Below are positions 1,445 through 63,952 of a stretch of 64,000 bases of DNA, piece after piece (the first letter of the stretch is position 1; every line of letters starts with the position of its first letter). Made by a program: the position numbers and the translations under genes. The notes under the pieces were generated by a model. It was not told the origin of the DNA. It searched no databases and saw nothing but the letters and a program-made list of their open reading frames with translations. Source of the stretch: Escherichia phage mobillu; sequence record MN850622.1. One strand, given 5' to 3'.

Positions 1445-1668
1445 TGGCTAAATTGATTATAGAAGGGTCTGAAGATGTTTTAAAATGTTTTGCCGCCTGG
1501 TTTAGTTGCTCAGGCGAGCAATCATTCATTGAATCATTTAGAATGGGTGATATTACTGGAAACTATCCGACAACTGATATCACTGTACGTGGATATGGTA
1601 TTAATGAGCCTATCCAATTGGTCGAATATGACCTTGCCGCCGATGAGGAAATTCCTTATGTCGATTGA
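1444..1668 (+). CDS. hypothetical protein
   Basis: ORF with TAATG start/stop overlap with GrcA-like gene. Confidence 0.5.
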   Translation: MAKLIIEGSEDVLKCFAAWFSCSGEQSFIESFRMGDITGNYPTTDITVRGYGINEPIQLVEYDLAADEEIPYVD

Positions 1669-33411: not shown

Positions 33412-34047
33412 ATGAAAACTACACCAATCACTATCGCTATTGACGCAATCGTAAAACAAGCTTCATCTCTTGCCACTATGGCTAAAGTAATTAGTCAAAA
33501 CCCTGCTCGGTATAATGCTATTCTTGAAACTCTTCGTCGCCCTGGACTGAGTAATTATGAAAGTCGTGTAATTATTACAGGTGTTGGTAAGAACGCTAAT
33601 ATCGCAACTAAAGCTTCCGAGACTTTTGCTTCACTAGGTATTCCTAGCATGTATTTGAACACTGGGCATTATTCTCATGGTGACGCAGGATTTATTGCAC
33701 CTAATGATGTATTAGTTCACATCAGCCGTTCTGGTAAGACTGAAGAAATGATAGGTGTTGCTAAACATCTTCGTATGATTCGTCCTCAGGTTAAACAGAT
33801 TCTGTTACATTGTAACCCTGACATTCCACAAGAATACGAAGCCCTTTTTGATTACTCTTTCTGTACAGGCATCGCGGTAGAGGTTGATGAGAATTCTCTG
33901 GCTCCGACCATGTCCACTACATTGTTGTTAGCGCTTATCGATACGTTTGCTATCAACCTTTCGTCTGAACGTGGATTTACCTCTAATGATTTCCTTAAGT
34001 TCCATCCAGGCGGTGCACTAGGTGCCATGTTACGAGGCGAACAATGA
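33412..34047 (+). CDS. SIS-domain sugar-phosphate isomerase (GmhA/KdsD-like)
   Basis: 211 aa; SIS signature VIITGVGKNANIA...HISRSGKTEE; single-domain size similar to phosphoheptose isomerase. Confidence 0.75.
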   Translation: MKTTPITIAIDAIVKQASSLATMAKVISQNPARYNAILETLRRPGLSNYESRVIITGVGKNANIATKASETFASLGIPSMYLNTGHYSHGDAGFIAPNDVLVHISRSGKTEEMIGVAKHLRMIRPQVKQILLHCNPDIPQEYEALFDYSFCTGIAVEVDENSLAPTMSTTLLLALIDTFAINLSSERGFTSNDFLKFHPGGALGAMLRGEQ

Positions 34048-34187
34048 AAGCAATAACAATAGGACTTTTACTATTGATGCTTGTCATGACTATCTACTGG
34101 AGCTTAACGGCTCCGGTAATGATTCCAACACTTGTAATTGGATGGATTATGATTGGTCTACAGGCAAAGTATGAATGCTTTAACTAG
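34044..34187 (+). CDS. hypothetical small membrane protein (47 aa)
   Basis: ATGA coupling with SIS gene stop; two hydrophobic segments; below ORF-track cutoff. Confidence 0.4.
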   Translation: MKAITIGLLLLMLVMTIYWSLTAPVMIPTLVIGWIMIGLQAKYECFN

Positions 34188-34228
34188 AATAGTGTACAAT
34201 ACTCCTACTTACCAATGAGGACTTCAAC

Positions 34229-35914
34229 ATGAAAAAAGCTGTTATTCTTGGTGCTGGATTGGCAACTCGTTTGTATCCAATAACGCATCATATTCCTAAG
34301 GTGCTTGTTAACTATAAACAAGACACTATTCTGAGCAATTTGTATACAATTTATTCTGACCTTGGCGCAGATGAAATTATTGTAGTAGTTCATTCAAAAT
34401 TTGCTGAAACTGTTCGAGCTTATTGTGAGCAAGAAGGGTTCAATGTGACTATTCGTACAGTTGATGAAGCGTATGGTTCTGCTTATGCTCTTGCTAAATT
34501 ACACAAAGATTTAGACGGCCATAATGTAATTGTTAACTGGTGTGATATTATTCCCGATTTTGGTTCATGGTCTTGGAATGTTAACGCAATCTATGTTAAG
34601 GGTGACGAATGTCGATATAATTTCGACGGTGAAAATATCACTAACGTAGGTTCAACAGGTGGTAATGTTGTAGGAATTTATCAGTTCAAAGACTGGGAAT
34701 TCTATATGGGTTCTACTGATGAGGAAATTCATGAATACTGCAAAGGACGTGATTTCGTAGAATTCCTTTACGGCAGCGCATTCAATAAATCAGAGCTTAT
34801 GAATATAATTGATTTAGGTGATATGCCTAAACTTGAAAAGGCTCATGAAGTTCGTGAACTTAATCGTAGTTTTAATGCAGTTGAAATTGGTGAAGAAACT
34901 GTAACTAAATTCGCATTAACCGAACAGGGACGAGCTCTTCAGAAAGATGAGATTTCGTGGTATTTGAAAGTGAAATCAGATTCAGTTCCTCAGTTAGTTT
35001 CTGTTAATGAAAATAACTTTGAAATGGAACGCATTAAAGGTAAGCCGGCATTTGAATATATTAAATCAAAATCAAGTCTTGCTCGTCCACAAATTATTGA
35101 TGCAATTTTAGATGCACTGAAATTCAGCACAGACACTTATTTTGTAAGTCCTGAAACTGTTCGTCGTGATTTCACTAAAGAATTCTATACGAAAGTTATT
35201 GATCGTTGTGAAAGCATTCAACCATTGATTGATTCATTTGGTAAAATCACACATGTGAACTACACTAAGATTGGACGTCTGAAGCCAATGCTGAAACAAG
35301 CTTTAGAACACCTTATTCGTTATCATAACCGTTCTCAGGGACAGTACTCTGTTATTCATGGTGACCCGAACTTCAGTAATACTATGATTACTGATAACGG
35401 CGAAGTCAAGTTTATCGACCCTCGTGGATATTTTGGCGAAACCAAGATTTACGGGCCAAAATTGTATGATGAAGCTAAAGTGCTTTATGCTGTTTCAGGT
35501 TATGATGAATTCAATGCTAATCCGACCTGGGGACAGTTTACTATTGATGAAACAACTTGTAATGTGACTATTAACATCAATCCATTAGTTTACAAATATG
35601 GAAAGATGAGTTCGTTTAACGAGTATCATCATTTGGCTGTAGCAATTATCTGGATTGCATTAGGTGGTTATTTCAAGAATAATCCACTTAAAGCGGTAGC
35701 CGCATATTATAAAGGTATGGAACTTCTGACTAAGCAATTACGTAACATGGGCCGTGTACTTCAAGACGGCTCTATTAGTTATGACGTAGCAGAACCTGTA
35801 ACGGCTACTCTGATTACAAAAAATCCTGGTAAATGGGTACTAACTGATAAAGAAACTGGTGTTTCCTATCGTCCAATCGGTGGCGATATCACTCATCAAT
35901 GGGAACGAATCTAA
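34229..35914 (+). CDS. bifunctional sugar-1-phosphate nucleotidyltransferase / sugar kinase (APH-choline kinase fold)
   Basis: 561 aa; N-terminal NTP-transferase signature AVILGAGLATRLYPIT..PK; C-terminal kinase motifs VIHGDPNFSNTMI and FIDPRGYFGE. Confidence 0.75.
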   Translation: MKKAVILGAGLATRLYPITHHIPKVLVNYKQDTILSNLYTIYSDLGADEIIVVVHSKFAETVRAYCEQEGFNVTIRTVDEAYGSAYALAKLHKDLDGHNVIVNWCDIIPDFGSWSWNVNAIYVKGDECRYNFDGENITNVGSTGGNVVGIYQFKDWEFYMGSTDEEIHEYCKGRDFVEFLYGSAFNKSELMNIIDLGDMPKLEKAHEVRELNRSFNAVEIGEETVTKFALTEQGRALQKDEISWYLKVKSDSVPQLVSVNENNFEMERIKGKPAFEYIKSKSSLARPQIIDAILDALKFSTDTYFVSPETVRRDFTKEFYTKVIDRCESIQPLIDSFGKITHVNYTKIGRLKPMLKQALEHLIRYHNRSQGQYSVIHGDPNFSNTMITDNGEVKFIDPRGYFGETKIYGPKLYDEAKVLYAVSGYDEFNANPTWGQFTIDETTCNVTININPLVYKYGKMSSFNEYHHLAVAIIWIALGGYFKNNPLKAVAAYYKGMELLTKQLRNMGRVLQDGSISYDVAEPVTATLITKNPGKWVLTDKETGVSYRPIGGDITHQWERI

Positions 35915-36300
35915 TGCACCGTGTAGAAAACATGCTTAATCTTTGTTTTGATGTCGATGATTGTATAACAGAGTGGAATAACAATCGTGATTACGTGAAC
36001 TTCAAACCAGACGTCGAAATGGTGTCTGCCATTAATGCCCTGTATGATGCAGGGCATACCATAACGCTTTACACTGCTCGCGGTATGAAGTCAGTAGGTC
36101 CTGGTCGTATAGCAATTGACATTCTCCCAAGTCTGATTCAGAACTTGGCAAACATTGGCTTGAAGTACCATAATTTGCTAACACATAAACCAGTATATGA
36201 TTGGATTATCGACGACAAAGCTATGCGTCCTGACGAATTCAAAGCTCTTATGAATAAAGGCGAATTCGAAACATTTAAATCATATAAACCAAATCTATAA
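35914..36300 (+). CDS. HAD-superfamily phosphatase
   Basis: 128 aa from ATG 35914 (TAATG coupling); HAD motif I FDVDDCIT near N-terminus; C-terminal WIIDDKA. Confidence 0.65.
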   Translation: MHRVENMLNLCFDVDDCITEWNNNRDYVNFKPDVEMVSAINALYDAGHTITLYTARGMKSVGPGRIAIDILPSLIQNLANIGLKYHNLLTHKPVYDWIIDDKAMRPDEFKALMNKGEFETFKSYKPNL

Positions 36301-36357
36301 TAATTTAAGTAAGACCTGCAAAAACCATCGCATCAATTAACGTGAGATGCAAAAAAA

Positions 36358-37518
36358 ATGAATACTTTTAAAATCGGAACGAATTTTGATTTAGCTCTTC
36401 TTGATAAAATCGTAGAGCTCAATAAAACTTATCCTAATAGCTTGATAAACGAAGTATACGGCTCTACAAGAGAAATGGCTTTTGTAGCAGCCAGACCTGA
36501 TTTTAGGCTTCCTGACGTTGACAAAAAGATGTTAGAAGATTACGTTAAACGTTGTAACGAATTAGGTATTTGCTTTAACTATACACTCAACACGATAAAT
36601 CCTGGTTCAAAAAGAGAACTAGTTGAGTGGAAGAAGAAAGCTATTCAGGATTATGTTCAGTATCTTTGGTCAATAGGCGTATGGCGTATTACTATCGCTA
36701 ACCCTGTTGTTATGGAAATTGTTCGTGAAGTCAATAAAGACATTGAGATTGAAGTTTCAACAATTCTACATGTCGATGCTGTAACTCAAATCAAATACTT
36801 GCATGACCAGTATAATATCAAAAAGGTCTGCTGTGGAATTCATAAGAACCGTTCAGTTTCTTTCCTGAAGCGTGCAGCAGAGTTTTGCAATAAGAACAAT
36901 ATAATATTTGAAGTTCTTGTAAATGAGTTCTGTTCTAATGCTGGTAAAGGGTATACAACACATTGTAGCTATCGTGACTCTTGCTATATTTTCCATAGTA
37001 CTGATGTTACAGCTGATGATGCTAAATCCTTAAACGGATATCCTATGCAGCACTGTATTAAAGCTCGTGATACAGACCCATTTAACTGGTTGAGAACTCG
37101 TTTTGTTCGTCCTCAAGATTTGAAACTTTATAATGATATTGGTATCACTCAATTCAAAGTTTCAGGACGTACAGGTAGCACAGACTACATTTTGAAAGTT
37201 CTTGAAGCATACGCTTCTGAAAAGTTTGAAGGTAATTTGTTAGAACTGTGGAAGCCTTTAGAGACTATTTTCACTCTTGAAAATGAGACCGAGTTTTCAC
37301 ATACGGTAAATATTGAAACCTCTTTGTTAGATGGCTTTTTAGAAAAAAGGTGGTTCAGACATCCAGATTTCGATTGTGCTAATGAAATCTGCGGGACGAC
37401 GTGTACATATTGTGAAAGATATTATAAACGTCAGTTATCTAAAAATGGGTTATCAGAAAATTCTATATCTATTATTGATATAACTAACTCTGATGACGCT
37501 TTGAGGTACCCAGAATGA
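36358..37518 (+). CDS. U32-family-like Cys-rich protein (tentative)
   Basis: 386 aa; layout YTLNTIN ... EVSTILHV ... IFEVLVNEFCSNAGKGYTTHCSY resembles U32 (PrtC/RlhA/UbiU) family; C-terminal cluster C-x4-C-x4-C-x2-C. Confidence 0.55.
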   Translation: MNTFKIGTNFDLALLDKIVELNKTYPNSLINEVYGSTREMAFVAARPDFRLPDVDKKMLEDYVKRCNELGICFNYTLNTINPGSKRELVEWKKKAIQDYVQYLWSIGVWRITIANPVVMEIVREVNKDIEIEVSTILHVDAVTQIKYLHDQYNIKKVCCGIHKNRSVSFLKRAAEFCNKNNIIFEVLVNEFCSNAGKGYTTHCSYRDSCYIFHSTDVTADDAKSLNGYPMQHCIKARDTDPFNWLRTRFVRPQDLKLYNDIGITQFKVSGRTGSTDYILKVLEAYASEKFEGNLLELWKPLETIFTLENETEFSHTVNIETSLLDGFLEKRWFRHPDFDCANEICGTTCTYCERYYKRQLSKNGLSENSISIIDITNSDDALRYPE

Positions 37519-37754
37519 TTTCTAGAAAAACTTTTAACCACCAACTTAATGAAGAGATTTTGACTATGAAAATTAACAGCAACGAACAAATTCTTAAAAA
37601 GGCCCTTATGGGCCTGTTTGAAACTAAAGCGGCTAAAGTGATTAAAGGACCTGTTCAATTGGAATACTACGCTGATGCATTTCTTCATAGTGTTCTTGGA
37701 AGTATCGATGCTGAAGCTTTACGTTATATCAACATTGTCAAGAAATTCAAATAA
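37515..37754 (+). CDS. hypothetical protein
   Basis: ORF 79 aa, ATGA overlap. Confidence 0.5.
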   Translation: MISRKTFNHQLNEEILTMKINSNEQILKKALMGLFETKAAKVIKGPVQLEYYADAFLHSVLGSIDAEALRYINIVKKFK

Positions 37755-37796
37755 GCTTTACGAATTGAGTATATAATAAATTGTATTGAGGTAAAC

Positions 37797-38513
37797 ATGG
37801 GAAAACATAACACAATGAAATATATCAAAGCCGCAGATTTTCAAACCGCATTTAAAGCAGTCAATCGTGAAATTTTAGAAAACCCGGAATTCGTAACTGA
37901 TTCTCGTATTGGACGTTGTAATGAAATTGGGTCTATGACAGTAGTTGTTGACACTCCATCATCATTCAAAATGACCGACCCACGTATTAACCGCATCTCT
38001 TATGAATACGCCGAAGATTTCTGGAAGTTTATGATTTCTGGTGGTACCAACGCAGAAGAAGCGTTTAAGGCATATCCTAATGTCGCTAAATTTATTTCTA
38101 AACCAAAATCAGATGTTTTGCCGGCGAACTTCAACACTTTCTACGGTCCTCGCATTGCGGCCCAATTACCAGCTCTTCTAAAAGAACTTAAAGAGAAGCC
38201 TAACTCCCGAAGAGTTGTGTTCCAAATTCTAGAAAGTTCTGATCAGGCTTTGCTTGATTCAGACGAAACGCTTGAATATCCATGTACTGACTCAGTGACT
38301 TATTATATTCGTGATGGTAAGCTTTATACCCACTGTCATATGCGTTCTCAGAACTGTGCTGTTGTTATGCAGTTGGATTTTTATCTCCAAGGAAAATTAC
38401 TTCATTATATCGCTAACGAATGTGGTGTAGAAGTTGGTGATTATACTCATACCATGGTAAGTGCCCATGTGTTTGAACGTGATTTTGATTATGTTAAAGG
38501 ATTCCTTGACTAA
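37797..38513 (+). CDS. 42: dCMP hydroxymethylase gp42 (thymidylate synthase family)
   Basis: 238 aa; PCTDSVTYYIRD ... HMRSQN segments correspond to T4 gp42 active-site region as I recall it. Confidence 0.8.
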   Translation: MGKHNTMKYIKAADFQTAFKAVNREILENPEFVTDSRIGRCNEIGSMTVVVDTPSSFKMTDPRINRISYEYAEDFWKFMISGGTNAEEAFKAYPNVAKFISKPKSDVLPANFNTFYGPRIAAQLPALLKELKEKPNSRRVVFQILESSDQALLDSDETLEYPCTDSVTYYIRDGKLYTHCHMRSQNCAVVMQLDFYLQGKLLHYIANECGVEVGDYTHTMVSAHVFERDFDYVKGFLD

Positions 38514-39412
38514 TGGCTATTTTCCGCGTACCAATCTTGAGTATGCGGTCTTATGAAACTGGACAGTATGCTATCCTTAAGGATGGCAACTTCCAACTTC
38601 ATTTGCACCGTGCTAATCCAGGTGATGTGATTACATATCCACGTAATGCATCTGATATTAAAGAATGCGAACGTCTTTTCCCAGAATTTAAGTTTGTTCC
38701 ATTATGGTATAAAGATAACGCGTATAACACTCGTAAATATTTCTGGTCTGAAAATGAATTTGTGGTTGATTCATTAATTGCTTATTATGATTGTGATTTT
38801 CTAATCACAGATATCACCGGATATGACGGTGCTTTTGATGTAGAATTCAATTTCAATATCACTGCAGACCCTAATAAACCACGTTTTTATATTGACGAAT
38901 TCTTAAAAACCGACATGTTGTCGGTTAATCGTTCACTTCAAACTACTGTGTTGAACGAACGTCAAAAAGAAGTGCTGGTTAACGCAGGTGCAGATGGTAA
39001 TAAGATTATCGTAACGCAGAAAGTTATACGTCCTTCCATCATGCAGCGTCTTGTAGGTGATTTGGCTCCTATTCATCTAGATGGTATTTTTCATCCATTT
39101 CGAATTAGCGACCCGTGCTATCGTTTTGAACAAGTGGTTGAATGTGCAATTCAATTAGGCCAACCGCTTTATATAACCGATCCAAATAATAGCTTCGACA
39201 GAAATAAGTATCCTGAAGAAGCGCTGATTCGAATTTTTAAACCAACTAAAACTGAGTACTATCAAATTCTTAAAGGACGTCCGAAAATTCAATATTTCGA
39301 AAATCCTGAAGAAGTATTCCATCCAGGTCTTGGTGAGTTCATCTACTTTAATGCTTTAATTTCTTCGCCGTATAATATACCTAAATATGAAGATGTCGTA
39401 ATCGAGGAATAA
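38513..39412 (+). CDS. hypothetical protein occupying the beta-glucosyltransferase locus
   Basis: 299 aa; no similarity to T4 beta-gt recognised; TAATG coupling with gene 42. Confidence 0.6.
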   Translation: MAIFRVPILSMRSYETGQYAILKDGNFQLHLHRANPGDVITYPRNASDIKECERLFPEFKFVPLWYKDNAYNTRKYFWSENEFVVDSLIAYYDCDFLITDITGYDGAFDVEFNFNITADPNKPRFYIDEFLKTDMLSVNRSLQTTVLNERQKEVLVNAGADGNKIIVTQKVIRPSIMQRLVGDLAPIHLDGIFHPFRISDPCYRFEQVVECAIQLGQPLYITDPNNSFDRNKYPEEALIRIFKPTKTEYYQILKGRPKIQYFENPEEVFHPGLGEFIYFNALISSPYNIPKYEDVVIEE

Positions 39413-39413
39413 A

Positions 39414-39962
39414 ATGGCTAAAATTATTTTAGTAGATGGCCCAGATAATGCTGGTAAAACAACTTTCATTAATGACATAATGGAAATTAGTGAAAGATAT
39501 GTAAAGATTGATTTCCCTAAACGAACAGTTGATGGGCGTTTCGATGTTAAGTCTCGAAATGAAGTTGGCTGCTTCGAAACGATGTTGAATTATTTAGACC
39601 CTACTAAGATTTATCTGTTAGACCGTGGATATATTAGTAACTGGGTTTATGGACGTATTCGACAAGATGCGGACTCGGTTCTTGACGTTTATGAACAGGA
39701 TTATGTTCGTCTTTGCCAAAACCATGATGTGTTCACAATTATTTTAACACGTAACGAAATGACTGAAAGTTTTGAAGACGACCTTATTACTTTGTCTTCA
39801 TTCGGTTTTAATACAGTCATTTCACATTTTGAAGAGTTTGCAATTCATAACAAAATCCAAACGTATCAATTACTTAATCATGATGGTGCTAACAAAGTTA
39901 TAGGATTTAATGCAAGCGAACGTAATTATTTGATTACAGAAATTATCAAATGGGCTCGTTAA
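39414..39962 (+). CDS. P-loop nucleoside/nucleotide kinase-like protein
   Basis: 182 aa; Walker A VDGPDNAGKTT; LDRGYIS resembling dNK/TMK family. Confidence 0.65.
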   Translation: MAKIILVDGPDNAGKTTFINDIMEISERYVKIDFPKRTVDGRFDVKSRNEVGCFETMLNYLDPTKIYLLDRGYISNWVYGRIRQDADSVLDVYEQDYVRLCQNHDVFTIILTRNEMTESFEDDLITLSSFGFNTVISHFEEFAIHNKIQTYQLLNHDGANKVIGFNASERNYLITEIIKWAR

Positions 39963-58472: not shown

Positions 58473-60290
58473 ATGATTAAAAATGAAATTAAGGTATTGT
58501 CAGATGTAGAACATATTAAGAAACGTAGTGGTATGTATATTGGTTCTTCGGCTAAAGAAGCCCACGAGCGTTTTTTGTTTGGTAAATATCAACAAGTTGA
58601 ATATGTTCCTGGTCTGGTTAAATTAATCGATGAGATTATTGACAACTCGGTTGATGAAGCTATTCGTACATCATTTAAGTTTGCAAATAAAATTGATGTG
58701 CAAATTAAAAATAATCAAGTTTCGGTGGAAGATAACGGACGTGGTATTCCTCAAGGTTTAGTTACCGACCAAACAGGTGAACAAATTCCTGGACCTGTAG
58801 CAGCCTGGACTATTCCAAAGGCCGGTGGTAACTTTGGTGATGACTCTGAACGCAAGACTGGTGGTATGAACGGCGTCGGGAGTAGTTTAACTAATATCTT
58901 CTCTACGTTGTTTACAGGCATCACGTCAGATGGCGAAAACGAAATCACTGTTAACTGTTCAAACGGAATGGAAAACAAATCATGGTCTTCTAAGAAATCT
59001 AAAGGTAAAGGCACTAAAGTAATCTTCACTCCTGATTTCTCTTCATTTGAAGAGCATAATTTATCTCAAATTTATTTAGATATTACTTTAGACCGACTTC
59101 AAACATTGGCAGTCGTTTATCCTGATATCAAGTTCACATTTAATGGTAAAAAGGTTGATGGTAATTTTAAACGATTTGCTAAACAATTTGGCGAAGATAA
59201 CATCATTCAAGAAAATGATAAAGTCTCTATAGCATTCACAACATCACCAGATGGCTTCCGTCATTTAACTTATGTGAATAACATCCATACTAAAAATGGT
59301 GGTCATCATGTTGAATGTGTAATGGATGATATCTGTGAACATCTTTTGCCTGGTATTAAAAAGAAATATAAGGGTATTGAAGTCACTAAAGCTCGTGTTA
59401 AAGAATGTCTCACAATGTTGATGTTTATTAGAGACATGAGCAACATGCGTTTTGATTCTCAGACTAAAGAACGTTTAACGTCAACGTATGGTGATATTCG
59501 TAATCATATCCAATTAGATGCTAAGAAAATTGCTCAGGCACTTCTTAAAAACGAAGCCTTGATTATGCCTATTGTTGAAGCAGCATTAGCTCGTAAATTG
59601 GCAGCAGAAAAGGCTGCAGAAACTAAAGCAGCTAAAAAGGCAACTAAAGCTAAGGTTCATAAGCATATTAAAGCTAACCAATGTGGTAAAGATGCAGATA
59701 CGACATTGTTTTTAACAGAAGGTGATTCGGCAATTGGTTATCTCATTGATGTTCGTGACCGTGAACTACACGGCGGATTCCCATTACGTGGTAAGGTGAT
59801 GAATAGCTGGGGTATGTCATATGCTGATATGATGAAGAACAAAGAGCTCTTTGATATCTGTGCTATCACGGGTCTTATTCTTGGTGAAAAGGCAGAGAAT
59901 ACGAACTATCGTAATATTGCAATTATGACCGATGCCGATCATGACGGTCTTGGAAGTATTTATCCGGCTTTGCTTGCTTTCTTTAGTAATTGGCCTGAAT
60001 TGTTTGAACAAGGACGTATTCGCTTTGTTAAAACGCCTGTAATTATTGCACAAATTGGCAAAACTCAAAAATGGTTTTATACTGTAGCTGAGTATGAAGA
60101 AGTTAAAGATACACTGCCTAAGCATAGTATTAGATACATCAAGGGATTAGGCTCCCTTGAAAAGTCAGAATATCGTGAAATGATTCAGAACCCTGTGTAC
60201 GACGTAGTTAAACTTCCTGAAAATTGGAAAGAACTCTTTGAAATGTTGATGGGTGATGATTCAGAACTTCGTAAAGAATGGATGTCCTAA
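58473..60290 (+). CDS. 39: DNA topoisomerase II large subunit, fused gp39/gp60 form (GyrB-like ATPase + TOPRIM)
   Basis: 605 aa; GHKL ATPase motifs (DNSVDE, DNGRGIP, GGMNGVGSS) plus TOPRIM LFLTEGDSA and DADHDG in one continuous frame. Confidence 0.9.
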   Translation: MIKNEIKVLSDVEHIKKRSGMYIGSSAKEAHERFLFGKYQQVEYVPGLVKLIDEIIDNSVDEAIRTSFKFANKIDVQIKNNQVSVEDNGRGIPQGLVTDQTGEQIPGPVAAWTIPKAGGNFGDDSERKTGGMNGVGSSLTNIFSTLFTGITSDGENEITVNCSNGMENKSWSSKKSKGKGTKVIFTPDFSSFEEHNLSQIYLDITLDRLQTLAVVYPDIKFTFNGKKVDGNFKRFAKQFGEDNIIQENDKVSIAFTTSPDGFRHLTYVNNIHTKNGGHHVECVMDDICEHLLPGIKKKYKGIEVTKARVKECLTMLMFIRDMSNMRFDSQTKERLTSTYGDIRNHIQLDAKKIAQALLKNEALIMPIVEAALARKLAAEKAAETKAAKKATKAKVHKHIKANQCGKDADTTLFLTEGDSAIGYLIDVRDRELHGGFPLRGKVMNSWGMSYADMMKNKELFDICAITGLILGEKAENTNYRNIAIMTDADHDGLGSIYPALLAFFSNWPELFEQGRIRFVKTPVIIAQIGKTQKWFYTVAEYEEVKDTLPKHSIRYIKGLGSLEKSEYREMIQNPVYDVVKLPENWKELFEMLMGDDSELRKEWMS

Positions 60291-60312
60291 GCTCCTTCGG
60301 GAGCTTCATTTT
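60290..60312 (+). terminator. candidate rho-independent terminator
   Basis: AGCTCC-TTCG-GGAGCT followed by TCATTTT. Confidence 0.55.
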
Positions 60313-60332: not shown

Positions 60333-61433
60333 ATGAAAGTTATGTTTATCCCATCTCGCGCAGTCCCATTTAACCCAGAACGTGTACAAGGTGGTCTTGA
60401 AGCAGTACATTTAAATGTGTTGAAATATCTTGTGTCCATCGGTGCTGATATTGATTATATCGGCTTTGATAATGACACGTTTGGTGACTGGAAGGTTAAT
60501 CATCATCCTGTTGGTCATCTGACTAAATTCAGTCTAGGTATGAGTTATACTATGGCTCGTAAGATTGTTGAACTAGCCGGCATTAATGAGTACGATTTCG
60601 TTGTTACAATGGAACCGACCAAACTAACCGTTCAGGCAATTAAAGACGCAGGTCTCTCTAAAGTTCATAAGAATTTTATGGCAACACCATTTGAACCAGT
60701 ATCTCGTGGCATTGTTCAAATTTGGGACCAGACTATTCAAATTCATAAGAACGGTGGTAAGAGTTATGCTCCTACTAAAGCCTTCCGTGAATTTGAACGC
60801 AAATATTGTTATATGACTTCAGGTCTGACTGACAAAATTGATTATGATTATTGGCGAGCAAATCCGTTGTTTGAAGCCGAAGATTATCCGGTTATTTGTT
60901 TGAATGATAAACCTGAAGTTCTTCCGGCGACTGATCTGATTATTAGTGCACAACGTTATGACACTAAAATGCGTCGTACTGATGTTGCTCTTGAAGCGAT
61001 TAAAGCACTAGGCGAAAATGGTGCAGGATACTGTCCTAGTAAATGGGCACCACCAGCTAAATATCCTGTTATTATTGATGCTCCACACAGTGAAATCATG
61101 GAACGTCTTAAAATGGCTAAAGCACTTATTAATACGTGTCCTGACACAGGTACGGTAGAGAATAGTTCTATTGAAGCCATCTCTAAAGGTGTCCCTGTAA
61201 TCCAGTTAGTTTTTAAGGATTATCCTCATGCGACATTCGAATACGACCCGGATACTGTGCGTGTAGAAATTGATTCCTCTACTCCTAAGAAAGAAGTAGT
61301 TGCGCTTTACACAAAAGCTGTATTAGAATTCACTGACACATACGAAGCTCGAGTTAAACGTGCTGAAGCAGTATGGAAGAAATATAATCGAGATGCAGTT
61401 GTTGCGATGTGGGATAAAATCTTCACAGCGTAA
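60333..61433 (+). CDS. GT-B fold glycosyltransferase (GT4-like); candidate DNA (hmC) sugar transferase
   Basis: 366 aa; N-terminal MKVMFIPSRA..GGLEAVHLNVLKYL and C-terminal ENSSIEAISKGVPVI resemble GT4 signature regions. Confidence 0.65.
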   Translation: MKVMFIPSRAVPFNPERVQGGLEAVHLNVLKYLVSIGADIDYIGFDNDTFGDWKVNHHPVGHLTKFSLGMSYTMARKIVELAGINEYDFVVTMEPTKLTVQAIKDAGLSKVHKNFMATPFEPVSRGIVQIWDQTIQIHKNGGKSYAPTKAFREFERKYCYMTSGLTDKIDYDYWRANPLFEAEDYPVICLNDKPEVLPATDLIISAQRYDTKMRRTDVALEAIKALGENGAGYCPSKWAPPAKYPVIIDAPHSEIMERLKMAKALINTCPDTGTVENSSIEAISKGVPVIQLVFKDYPHATFEYDPDTVRVEIDSSTPKKEVVALYTKAVLEFTDTYEARVKRAEAVWKKYNRDAVVAMWDKIFTA

Positions 61434-61525
61434 ATCCTGAATAGCCTGAGGCACTATTACACATAAGATGATAGATTATATGGTCTTTAGTAATAGTGCC
61501 CTAGGAATCTACTGAAGAGAATATT

Positions 61526-61726
61526 ATGAGAACATATAACGTGGACTTGGAACTTTTTGATAAAGCAGTGCTCCGGGAATTCCGGCTTATCCAAAGATTT
61601 TTTGATATCGAATCAGCAGAGTCCTTTAAAGAACGCTTTAAAGAAATTCGATATAAAATACAAACCGATACAGCTACTAAAGAAGAACTTCTTGAAGTAG
61701 CAGAAATTTTTAAACGTAACTTGTGA
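61526..61726 (+). CDS. hypothetical protein (rIIA.1 position)
   Basis: ORF 66 aa upstream of rIIA. Confidence 0.5.
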   Translation: MRTYNVDLELFDKAVLREFRLIQRFFDIESAESFKERFKEIRYKIQTDTATKEELLEVAEIFKRNL

Positions 61727-61738
61727 TGAGAGAAAAAT

Positions 61739-63952
61739 ATGATTATTGAAACGGCTAAAGAAACGATTATTGGTTCTGGTGGTAAAAGCACAGCATTTAC
61801 TATTCAAGGCAATAGCAAAGTTTATAAGATTTTGTCTAATGACCTTTATACAAACAAAGAATTGGCTTGTGTACGTGAATTAATCACAAACTGTATTGAT
61901 GGGCAAATTCTTAATGGTTGCACTGATAAGTTTATTGTTCAGGCACCAGGTCGTTTAGACCCACGTTTTGTAGTTCGAGACTTTGGTCCTGGTATGAGTG
62001 ATTTCACCATTCGAGGTAATGACGAAGAGCCAGGAATTTATAACTCATATTTTGCTTCAACTAAAACATCGAGTAACGATTTCATTGGTGGATTCGGACT
62101 CGGCTCTAAAGCTCCATTAGCATATACCGATACGTTTAACCTTACGTCTTATCACAACGGCGAAGTTCGTGGTTACGTAATCTACCAAGATGACACGGGT
62201 CCACAAATTAAGCCGACCTTTGTAGATAAGATGGGTCCTGATGACCGTACTGGTGTAGAAGTAGTCGTACCGGTTAACCCGGAAGATTTTGAAAAGTTTG
62301 CATCCGAAATTGCGTATGTTATGCGTCCTCTAGGTGATATTGCAGAAGTTCGTGGTGTTAAAGATATTAAATACTTCCCTGAATTTGACGATGTATATTT
62401 GGCCAAGGAAGCTCCATGGGGTGAACGCGGTAATATCATGGCTGTTTACGGTGGTATTGTATATCCAATCGGAAGTGTTATTAAAGAACAAACATGGATG
62501 ATGACGCGATGCACTACAGCTTATATTAAATTCCCTATGGGTGAACTAGATGTAGCTCCGTCTCGTGAAGCATTGTCATTTGATAAACGTACGGTAGCAA
62601 ATATCCATAAACGCGTTGCAGAAATCGATGCTAAATTGTTCGCTGAAGATTCTAAGAAATGGATTGATTGTAAATACCCACGTCATGTGTTCCGTGAAAT
62701 TGATTCTCTTGGCTATACCGCTCGTAAATACATGGAAAAGGCTGGGTCTAATATTGAATCACTGAAATACTCTAAAGAACAACTAACTTATTCTGAGTTG
62801 TACAAACGTTTTAAAATGGGGCCTGAGTGGTGTAATCTTGGCGTCGTATATGATATCGTTGAATCCCCTCGTCTTCGTCGTATTCGTGAAAGTGGTAGCT
62901 CAACGGCAACCATTTCAATTAACAGTCTGATTGGCATTAACATTAAAAACGTTGAAATTGTTATTGACGACGTTAAGGGACGCGTTCCATTAATGCGAGC
63001 TCTTAATTCAATTGAAATGTCTAAAGACGAGGTTAAATTAACTGGTAAAGTTCCACGCGGTTTTGGTAAAAGCGTACTATTCGTTGACCCTACAGACGAA
63101 GATGCAATGAAACTTCTGGAACGCCTTAAAGTTATCTTTGTTGGCGACAACATTAACATGTACAAGACTTCAGAGCTTTTACAAATCGTTAAGCCATGGA
63201 TTGAAGTCAGGAAACGAACTAATGAGCCTCGTCCTAAATCGCCAAGTGCTCATCGATTCTTTAAGAATGAAAACGATGTTTGGGTATCAGAAGACCTCTT
63301 TATTCCGGCAAGTGAAGCAGATGAAATCCAAGGTTATGCTATAGTTCGTAATCGTTCTAATGCTGAATGTCTTGATGCAGATAAAGGTTGGTTGAACTAT
63401 GACTCTAATTTCTTGACCCGTATTGCTGATTTGTCAGATATTAAAGAGTTCACTGTAGTCCGTCCACAGATTGCTAAGAAAGTTCGTAAACTTGGTGAAG
63501 TAGAATGCTTGTTCGAAAAATCAATTAATGACTATATTACGCTAATCGATAAAGTAGATTATGATGAGTATGTATCACCAAGTCGTAGAGCACAGCCCTA
63601 TCTAAACCATATTACTCGTAATGAAGAGCTTAACTTCCTTAGTAAGTATTTTAGCTCTAAGAACAAAGAAATCAGTAAAGATTTTGCAAAACTCTCCACA
63701 GTAAATAATCGCTGGGGATGGAATCGATTCGCAGGTGCTACTAATACAGACCTGAATAAGAAGTTAGAATTGTGTGCTAAAATTTTCGATAAGCTTAAAG
63801 ATAATGCTTACGATAATGATGATAAAATGGTTATTGAATTCGAAACCAATTATCATATTGTGACAGAATACATGGGACGACGTGGTACTCTTTCAAAAGA
63901 ACAGGTCGCTCAAATCGTTAAATTCATGAAGGCCGTGGAAGCGGCCAAATAA
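61739..63952 (+). CDS. rIIA: rIIA membrane-associated protein
   Basis: 737 aa; followed directly by rIIB start; N-terminal GHKL-like region; size and synteny. Confidence 0.85.
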   Translation: MIIETAKETIIGSGGKSTAFTIQGNSKVYKILSNDLYTNKELACVRELITNCIDGQILNGCTDKFIVQAPGRLDPRFVVRDFGPGMSDFTIRGNDEEPGIYNSYFASTKTSSNDFIGGFGLGSKAPLAYTDTFNLTSYHNGEVRGYVIYQDDTGPQIKPTFVDKMGPDDRTGVEVVVPVNPEDFEKFASEIAYVMRPLGDIAEVRGVKDIKYFPEFDDVYLAKEAPWGERGNIMAVYGGIVYPIGSVIKEQTWMMTRCTTAYIKFPMGELDVAPSREALSFDKRTVANIHKRVAEIDAKLFAEDSKKWIDCKYPRHVFREIDSLGYTARKYMEKAGSNIESLKYSKEQLTYSELYKRFKMGPEWCNLGVVYDIVESPRLRRIRESGSSTATISINSLIGINIKNVEIVIDDVKGRVPLMRALNSIEMSKDEVKLTGKVPRGFGKSVLFVDPTDEDAMKLLERLKVIFVGDNINMYKTSELLQIVKPWIEVRKRTNEPRPKSPSAHRFFKNENDVWVSEDLFIPASEADEIQGYAIVRNRSNAECLDADKGWLNYDSNFLTRIADLSDIKEFTVVRPQIAKKVRKLGEVECLFEKSINDYITLIDKVDYDEYVSPSRRAQPYLNHITRNEELNFLSKYFSSKNKEISKDFAKLSTVNNRWGWNRFAGATNTDLNKKLELCAKIFDKLKDNAYDNDDKMVIEFETNYHIVTEYMGRRGTLSKEQVAQIVKFMKAVEAAK

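Follow-up and report, generated by a model that had tools for sequence, protein, structure and literature searches.

The stretch of Escherichia phage mobillu DNA analysed here (record MN850622.1; its full 64,000 nt are called the window in the following) carries at 60333..61433 a gene whose product probably adds a second arabinose to arabinosylated 5-hydroxycytosine (5hoC) in DNA and not, as a first-pass annotation had proposed, the first sugar to hmC. The gene itself is already known: it is a rediscovery of RB69 ORF003c, also referred to as gp3 or Aat, and nothing we found departs from the published picture. An arabinosyltransferase function was proposed for ORF003c in 2018 (Thomas et al., PMC6024577), the structure of the HY126 ortholog was released in 2025, and in 2025-2026 gp3 was given the second transfer instead (PMC13326640).

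We propose the following pathway for the modification. A cassette of sugar and base genes at 33412..39962 would make both UDP-D-arabinofuranose and 5-hydroxy-dCMP, and the hydroxylated base would take the place of C in the phage DNA. A GT-B enzyme encoded inside the cassette (38513..39412) would attach the first, alpha-linked arabinofuranose to the 5-hydroxyl, and the product of 60333..61433 would add a second, beta-(1->3)-linked arabinofuranose to the arabinosylated DNA. We infer that this enzyme acts at the level of DNA, with O3 of the base-proximal alpha-Araf as acceptor and the cassette-made UDP-D-Araf as donor. Its product would be di-arabinosyl-5-hydroxycytosine, the form that predominates in Mosigvirus DNA, and the extra sugar would widen protection against DNA-targeting host defences.

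The gene lies on the plus strand, starts with an ATG at position 60333 and ends with a stop codon at 61431-61433. Its 366-aa product carries the two sequences by which the ORF had been described, MKVMFIPS...GGLEAVHLNVLKYL at the N-terminus and ENSSIEAISKGVPVI in the C-terminal part. The reported location between gene 39 and rIIA was correct as well: a GyrB-type topoisomerase subunit of 605 amino acids (58473..60290; Pfam DNA_gyraseB, HATPase_c and TOPRIM_C) ends upstream, separated by a gap of 42 nt, and rIIA.1 (61526..61726; Pfam T4_RIIA1, 2.1e-30) and rIIA (61739..63952, a 737-aa ORF) follow downstream. RB69 shows the identical gene order of rIIA, rIIA.1, ORF003c and 60plus39. The distance to the sugar cassette, previously given as about 23 kb, amounts to 20.4 kb when measured to the near end of the cassette and ~23.6 kb when measured to the middle. 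Judged by its sequence, the window is an RB69-like Mosigvirus, and the gene shows 90-99% nucleotide identity across 155 phage records. These conserved records, a full-length match to PHROG 8302 and the solved structure of a 98%-identical protein place the ORF far beyond chance.

The closest known relatives are the orthologs from RB69 and HY126. With RB69 ORF003c the protein shares 361 of 366 residues (99%), and none of the five substitutions (window to RB69: E16D, N85H, D192E, M262T and T327I) affects a family-invariant residue. Two structures are available for the 98%-identical glycosyltransferase of HY126, the apo form (PDB 9IQZ) and a complex with UDP (9IR0). We regard the window protein likewise as a soluble enzyme with a UDP-sugar as ligand. 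We also take the Aat proteins of Bas46 and Bas47 to be orthologs of the same gene.

Sequence models of known families do not recognize this protein. Searches against Pfam at E <= 10 (PF00534, PF13439 and PF13692 included) and against NCBIfam returned no matching family, and the only full-length match was to PHROG 8302, annotated as "unknown function" (residues 1-366 of 366; 9e-222). The family is very small, with 10 proteins recovered by a profile search of 5.8 billion proteins and 12 representatives at E <= 0.001 in an exhaustive search of 1.84 billion. An AlphaFold (AF2) model built from 10 sequences nevertheless reached a pLDDT of 90.8 and a pTM of 0.87 and revealed a compact protein of two Rossmann-like domains, free of any signal peptide or membrane segment. 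This confident two-domain model with GT4-like neighbours answers the question of a GT-B fold that the first-pass annotation had raised. Based on the model, we classify the protein as a GT-B glycosyltransferase that is GT4-like by fold; apart from 9IQZ and 9IR0, all its structural neighbours act on small molecules, lipids or glycans (for example BshA, PimA, MshA and WaaG). When the family profile was compared to PDB sequences, it found the HY126 chain 9iqz (9.6e-161) and no GT4 chain, so that the likeness to GT4 rests on structure. The sole bridge to GT4 at the sequence level is the most distant profile match, P0016 (E 1.2e-4), which matches Pfam Glyco_transf_4 above the cut-off. By full-length homology and by a GT-B fold that matches the solved HY126 structure, the protein belongs to the gp3/Aat family (PHROG 8302).

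Six positions are invariant or nearly invariant in this family: G20-G21, R208, K215, E276 and E281. The canonical motif in the C-terminal domain of GT4 enzymes is E-x7-E. The window protein instead shows an E-x4-E spacing within the acidic motif TGTVE276-NSSI-E281-AISKGVPV, in which E276 is invariant and E281 nearly so. The earlier label "GT4-like" therefore stands for the GT-B fold and the structural neighbours, but neither the Pfam and NCBIfam sequence models nor the motif support it. In some GenBank records, family members are called phosphatidylinositol mannosyltransferase.

The identity of the modified base follows from a second gene, the ThyA homolog of the cassette. It shares 236 of 238 residues (99%) with RB69 gp48 (ORF048c) and matches the HY126 enzyme of PDB 9IQC/9IR2 (7.9e-161). 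RB69 gp48 is a flavin- and O2-dependent 5-hydroxy-dCMP synthase, and the RB69 base was determined by NMR as beta-D-Araf-(1->3)-alpha-D-Araf-5-hydroxy-2'-deoxycytidine (Lee et al., PMC13326640). The same chemistry was described for Mosigvirus NP, with a mono- to di-arabinoside ratio of 1:4, and an earlier call of arabinosyl-hmC was stated there to be erroneous (Durham study, PMC13390438). Because the homolog is 99% identical to a proven 5-hydroxy-dCMP synthase, we conclude that the acceptor base is 5-hydroxycytosine and not hmC. The proposed hmC acceptor is hence not borne out, and RB69-type DNA contains di-arabinosyl-O5-cytosine (PMC13326640, PMC13390438). Lee et al. also treated an Asn opposite Asp169 of E. 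coli ThyA as diagnostic for 5hoC synthases (PMC13326640). At this position the window protein reads A188 in the BLAST register and N186 in an ungapped register (RSQN versus RSCD). Since the two registers disagree, we base the assignment on the 99% identity to RB69 gp48.

The other cassette genes, all on the plus strand, include those for the donor. The first (33412..34047; RB69 gp55) encodes a KpsF/GutQ/KdsD-type arabinose-5-phosphate isomerase (Pfam SIS; NCBIfam kpsF 1.1e-31, KdsD 3.8e-30) and, by its sequence, represents the first step of donor sugar synthesis. It is followed by a bifunctional nucleotidyltransferase and kinase (34229..35914; RB69 gp52:53, HY126 AfhE) with matches to Pfam NTP_transferase (8.8e-10) and NCBIfam sugar-1-P nucleotidyltransferases as well as weak kinase matches; AfhE makes UDP-D-arabinofuranose, as summarised in PMC13326640. 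A small HAD-like sugar phosphatase (35899..36300; RB69 gp51) matches the capsule biosynthesis phosphatase model TIGR01689 of NCBIfam (4.3e-13) and corresponds to HY126 AfhF (function from PMC13326640). The ThyA-family 5-hydroxy-dCMP synthase described above (37797..38513; RB69 gp48; Pfam Thymidylat_synt 2.3e-15) makes the acceptor hydroxyl, and a putative nucleotide (dNMP) kinase (39414..39962; RB69 gp45), identified by a weak dTMP-kinase match and by synteny with RB69 ORF045c and the "putative thymidylate kinase" gp78 of DLP3, closes the cassette. The window thus belongs to the T4-like phages that possess the synthase, the UDP-arabinose pathway and the cassette glycosyltransferase.

Another member of the cassette is a Peptidase-U32-family protein (36358..37518, plus strand; RB69 gp50; Pfam Peptidase_U32 7.3e-11 and a weak UbiU match). 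U32 proteins include the O2-independent hydroxylases UbiU/V, RlhA (5-hydroxycytidine in rRNA) and TrhP (5-hydroxyuridine in tRNA). The phage protein could provide an anaerobic path to 5-hydroxycytosine that complements the O2-dependent gp48. Its homologs, present in 221 records of phages that infect Enterobacterales or Shewanella, are at least 80% identical, making it far more conserved than the neighbouring glycosyltransferase. None of these 221 records stems from an Acinetobacter phage; the Acinetobacter host is a strict aerobe. In the literature, the protein is labelled merely as "sugar or heterocycle reductase" (PMC13326640).

Between the synthase and the dNMP kinase lies the second glycosyltransferase gene of the window (38513..39412, plus strand; RB69 ORF046c+047c), which encodes a GT-B protein of 299 amino acids, here called the cassette GT. 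No Pfam or NCBIfam family matched it and the PDB holds no solved structure for it; its nearest structural neighbours are retaining GT4-type enzymes. Its N-terminal domain contains four invariant aspartates (D24, D100, D128 and D134), and one could speculate that they act as general base. We considered the two glycosyltransferases of the window as possible paralogs and rejected this idea, as a direct comparison gave no sequence similarity. The start codon of the cassette GT (ATG at 38513) and the stop codon of the preceding 5-hydroxy-dCMP synthase gene have one base in common. In the window, the cassette GT (299 aa) and the nucleotidyltransferase/kinase (561 aa) are each encoded by one uninterrupted ORF. 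The RB69 reference record AY303349.1 divides both in two (ORF046c/047c and ORF052c/053c), and the intact ORFs lend support to the published interpretation of these RB69 splits as sequencing errors.

With two glycosyltransferases available, the question is which of them adds which sugar. In a published proposal, Table 1 of PMC13326640 lists gp46:47 as "arabinosyltransferase 1" and gp3 as "beta-arabinosyltransferase 2", and the evidence described below fits it. We regard the unannotated GT-B gene inside the cassette as the more likely first-sugar enzyme and propose it as the alpha-arabinosyltransferase that acts on 5-hydroxycytosine. The best-candidate role that the first-pass annotation had assigned to the product of 60333..61433 accordingly survives in part: it is a cassette-linked glycosyltransferase, but the base is 5hoC and the cassette has a GT-B enzyme of its own. 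A counter-point is that the HY126 group crystallised the gp3 ortholog and not the cassette GT. This ortholog could also be the enzyme which that group assayed, possibly on bare 5-hydroxycytosine. We also weighed the reverse order, in which the 366-aa protein is the primary DNA arabinosyltransferase that places the first sugar on the modified cytosine, leaving a second or other function to the cassette GT. Its GT-B fold, the UDP complex of the HY126 ortholog and the original proposal for RB69 ORF003c (PMC6024577) all speak for this order, and the gp3 ortholog may have been better behaved than the structurally unsolved cassette GT and possibly the enzyme that was assayed. We nevertheless consider this order improbable. 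An hmC acceptor is excluded for a phage that makes 5hoC, and the sole homologs with assay data lengthen an arabinose chain that is already in place and are inactive on 5hoC-DNA (PMC13326640). The reverse order also conflicts with the distribution of the family.

We searched for both glycosyltransferases in phage records by tblastn. The gp3 family was found in 211 records, comprising ~155 Mosigvirus-type records with one copy, 55 Acinetobacter records with matches in two places each and one record named "Tegunavirus"; two divergent family members used as queries recovered the same set. The lone "Tegunavirus" record, neither Mosigvirus nor Acinetobacter, contains a family member of less than 60% identity. 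The cassette GT was found in 348 records, from phages of Escherichia (including Dhakavirus JS98), Klebsiella, Serratia, Enterobacter, Proteus, Yersinia, Edwardsiella, Shewanella (Thanatos) and Acinetobacter. Among these carriers of the cassette GT, no gp3-family member was detected in the phages of Klebsiella, Serratia, Yersinia and Proteus or in Dhakavirus and Thanatos. The cassette GT is present in every arabinosylating phage lineage, and the gp3 family is restricted to lineages for which two or more arabinoses have been reported; the co-occurrence of the two (211 versus 348 records) was judged from matching group counts and not by record-by-record intersection. The number of copies parallels the number of sugars: Thanatos has no gp3-family copy and mono-arabinose; RB69, NP, Bas46 and Bas47 have one copy and di-arabinose; and DLP3 has two copies and tri-arabinose, with the chemistry known from a few phages per lineage (PMC13326640, PMC13390438, PMC12923530). 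Most lineages that share the synthase, the sugar pathway and the cassette GT lack the family, Thanatos with its mono-arabinose among them, which speaks against a role as primary transferase.

The distribution also supports the suspected tie to the sugar cassette: family and cassette occur together in sequenced phages, and in other lineages they are direct neighbours. This bears on a further explanation, namely that the 366-aa protein glycosylates a target other than DNA, for instance a protein or one of the lipids or glycans of the host envelope, and that its link to DNA modification is coincidental. Most GT4-type enzymes act in this way, as do the structural neighbours named above apart from 9IQZ/9IR0, and the mannosyltransferase name in GenBank points in the same direction. 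Such a role is very hard to reconcile with a family that is confined, among sequenced phages, to cassette-carrying lineages and adjoins the cassette in Acinetobacter phages and in the metagenomic contig L003, with homologs that act on DNA in vitro (PMC13326640) and with a compact two-domain model that has neither signal peptide nor membrane segment. We consider it highly improbable.

The biochemical evidence for a chain-extending function comes from DLP3. Its gp77 and gp76 are 42% and 41% identical to the 366-aa protein over the full length (E about 1e-100), and both paralogs are located inside the cassette, where its kinase, GT and synthase genes are their neighbours. In vitro, gp76 and gp77 jointly use UDP-Araf to attach a third arabinose to RB69 DNA, neither does so alone, and no single DLP3 GT is active on 5hoC-DNA (PMC13326640); the last two points count against firm single-enzyme roles. 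Both proteins keep G20-G21, R208 and E276, whereas in gp76 K215 is replaced by R and N277 by H. Transfer from UDP-Araf to arabinosyl-5-hydroxycytosine by the Mosigvirus enzyme is a published proposal that would extend this activity, demonstrated in vitro for the gp76+gp77 pair only (PMC13326640).

The joint action of the DLP3 proteins and the inactivity of the single enzymes on 5hoC-DNA raise the possibility that the 366-aa protein works only in a heteromeric pair with the cassette GT, and that both sugars are installed processively without separate roles. In contig L003, the gp3-family gene runs 4 nt (1571..1574) into the beginning of a cassette-GT homolog, and this homolog is 48% identical to the cassette GT of the window. 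The overlap and the start/stop coupling at 38513 are hints of co-translation or physical partnership of the modification enzymes. An obligate pair is nevertheless improbable: the two Mosigvirus genes lie ~20 kb apart, and many lineages with the cassette GT alone still arabinosylate their DNA (PMC13326640). Moreover, a Bas46 phage deleted for Aat still grows (PMC13216743), so that Aat is dispensable for growth, which argues against both an obligate pair and a primary transferase. The same source reports the deletion phage as susceptible to a plasmid-encoded defence, a result cited by analogy with second-sugar transferases.

We therefore retain separate roles for the two enzymes, with the product of 60333..61433 as the second arabinosyltransferase. 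The presence of an alpha and a beta linkage, presumably made from a single UDP-D-Araf donor by two enzymes that both resemble retaining GT4 types, implies that one phage GT must differ stereochemically from its fold relatives. A more specific idea, which we find rather unlikely, is that 60333..61433 encodes a retaining beta-arabinofuranosyltransferase with a short E-x4-E site that reads the major-groove sugar and needs the cassette GT as a partner, comparable to gp76/gp77.

The gene had further been described as flanked by terminator hairpins, which applies to one side. Upstream, a terminator scan and the sequence revealed a stem-loop (60289..60306, plus strand) of 7 bp whose loop reads TTCG and whose tail is rich in T. 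It reaches into the gene 39 stop codon, lies 27 nt ahead of the glycosyltransferase start and is terminator-like, or else an mRNA-stabilising hairpin. Downstream, in the gap before rIIA.1, RNA folding predicted a long stem-loop with imperfect pairing (61442..61511, plus strand; -28.6 kcal/mol, z = -4.12), and none of 200 shuffled sequences was equally stable. Its core arms form 11 perfect bp (GGCACTATTAC at 61450-61460 and GTAATAGTGCC at 61490-61500), but the long loop and the lack of a T-run show that it is not a canonical intrinsic terminator. An Rfam search around both hairpins gave no family match. A sigma-70-like site (60055..60083, plus strand; TTGGCA, 17 nt, TATACT; 10 of 12 matches) falls within the 3' end of gene 39, ~250 nt ahead of the glycosyltransferase gene; it is weak, and promoter-like sites are fewer here than in shuffled sequence. 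Since the 42-nt gap is too short for a promoter, transcription of the gene would either begin at this site or continue from gene 39 by read-through.

Taken together, the first-pass annotation recognised the glycosyltransferase correctly, with a functional assignment that is outdated. Poly-arabinosylated 5-hydroxycytosine allows Mosigvirus phages, which are common therapy candidates, to evade restriction enzymes and DNA glycosylases as well as some CRISPR-Cas systems, and the number of sugars alters which host defences still recognise the DNA. Assigning genes to sugars would enable the engineering of phages with defined DNA chemistry.

Compared to known DNA glycosyltransferases, the 366-aa protein resembles neither of the T4 enzymes: it shows no AGT sequence match to the T4 alpha-glucosyltransferase (GT72, Pfam AGT) and does not share its hmC acceptor, and there is no sequence or close structural match to the T4 beta-glucosyltransferase (GT63). 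The CAZy GT4-type retaining GT-B enzymes (BshA, PimA, MshA, sucrose-phosphate synthase and WaaG) are only 10-15% identical to it, and it differs from them by the E276-x4-E281 spacing and by its proposed acceptor, a sugar on DNA. RB69 ORF003c/gp3, in contrast, has the same length, the same slot between 60plus39 and rIIA.1 and the same partner cassette as the gene in the window. DLP3 represents a variation of this arrangement: two paralogs located in the cassette are both required and a tri-arabinoside is formed, whereas Mosigvirus has one copy ~20 kb from the cassette and two sugars.
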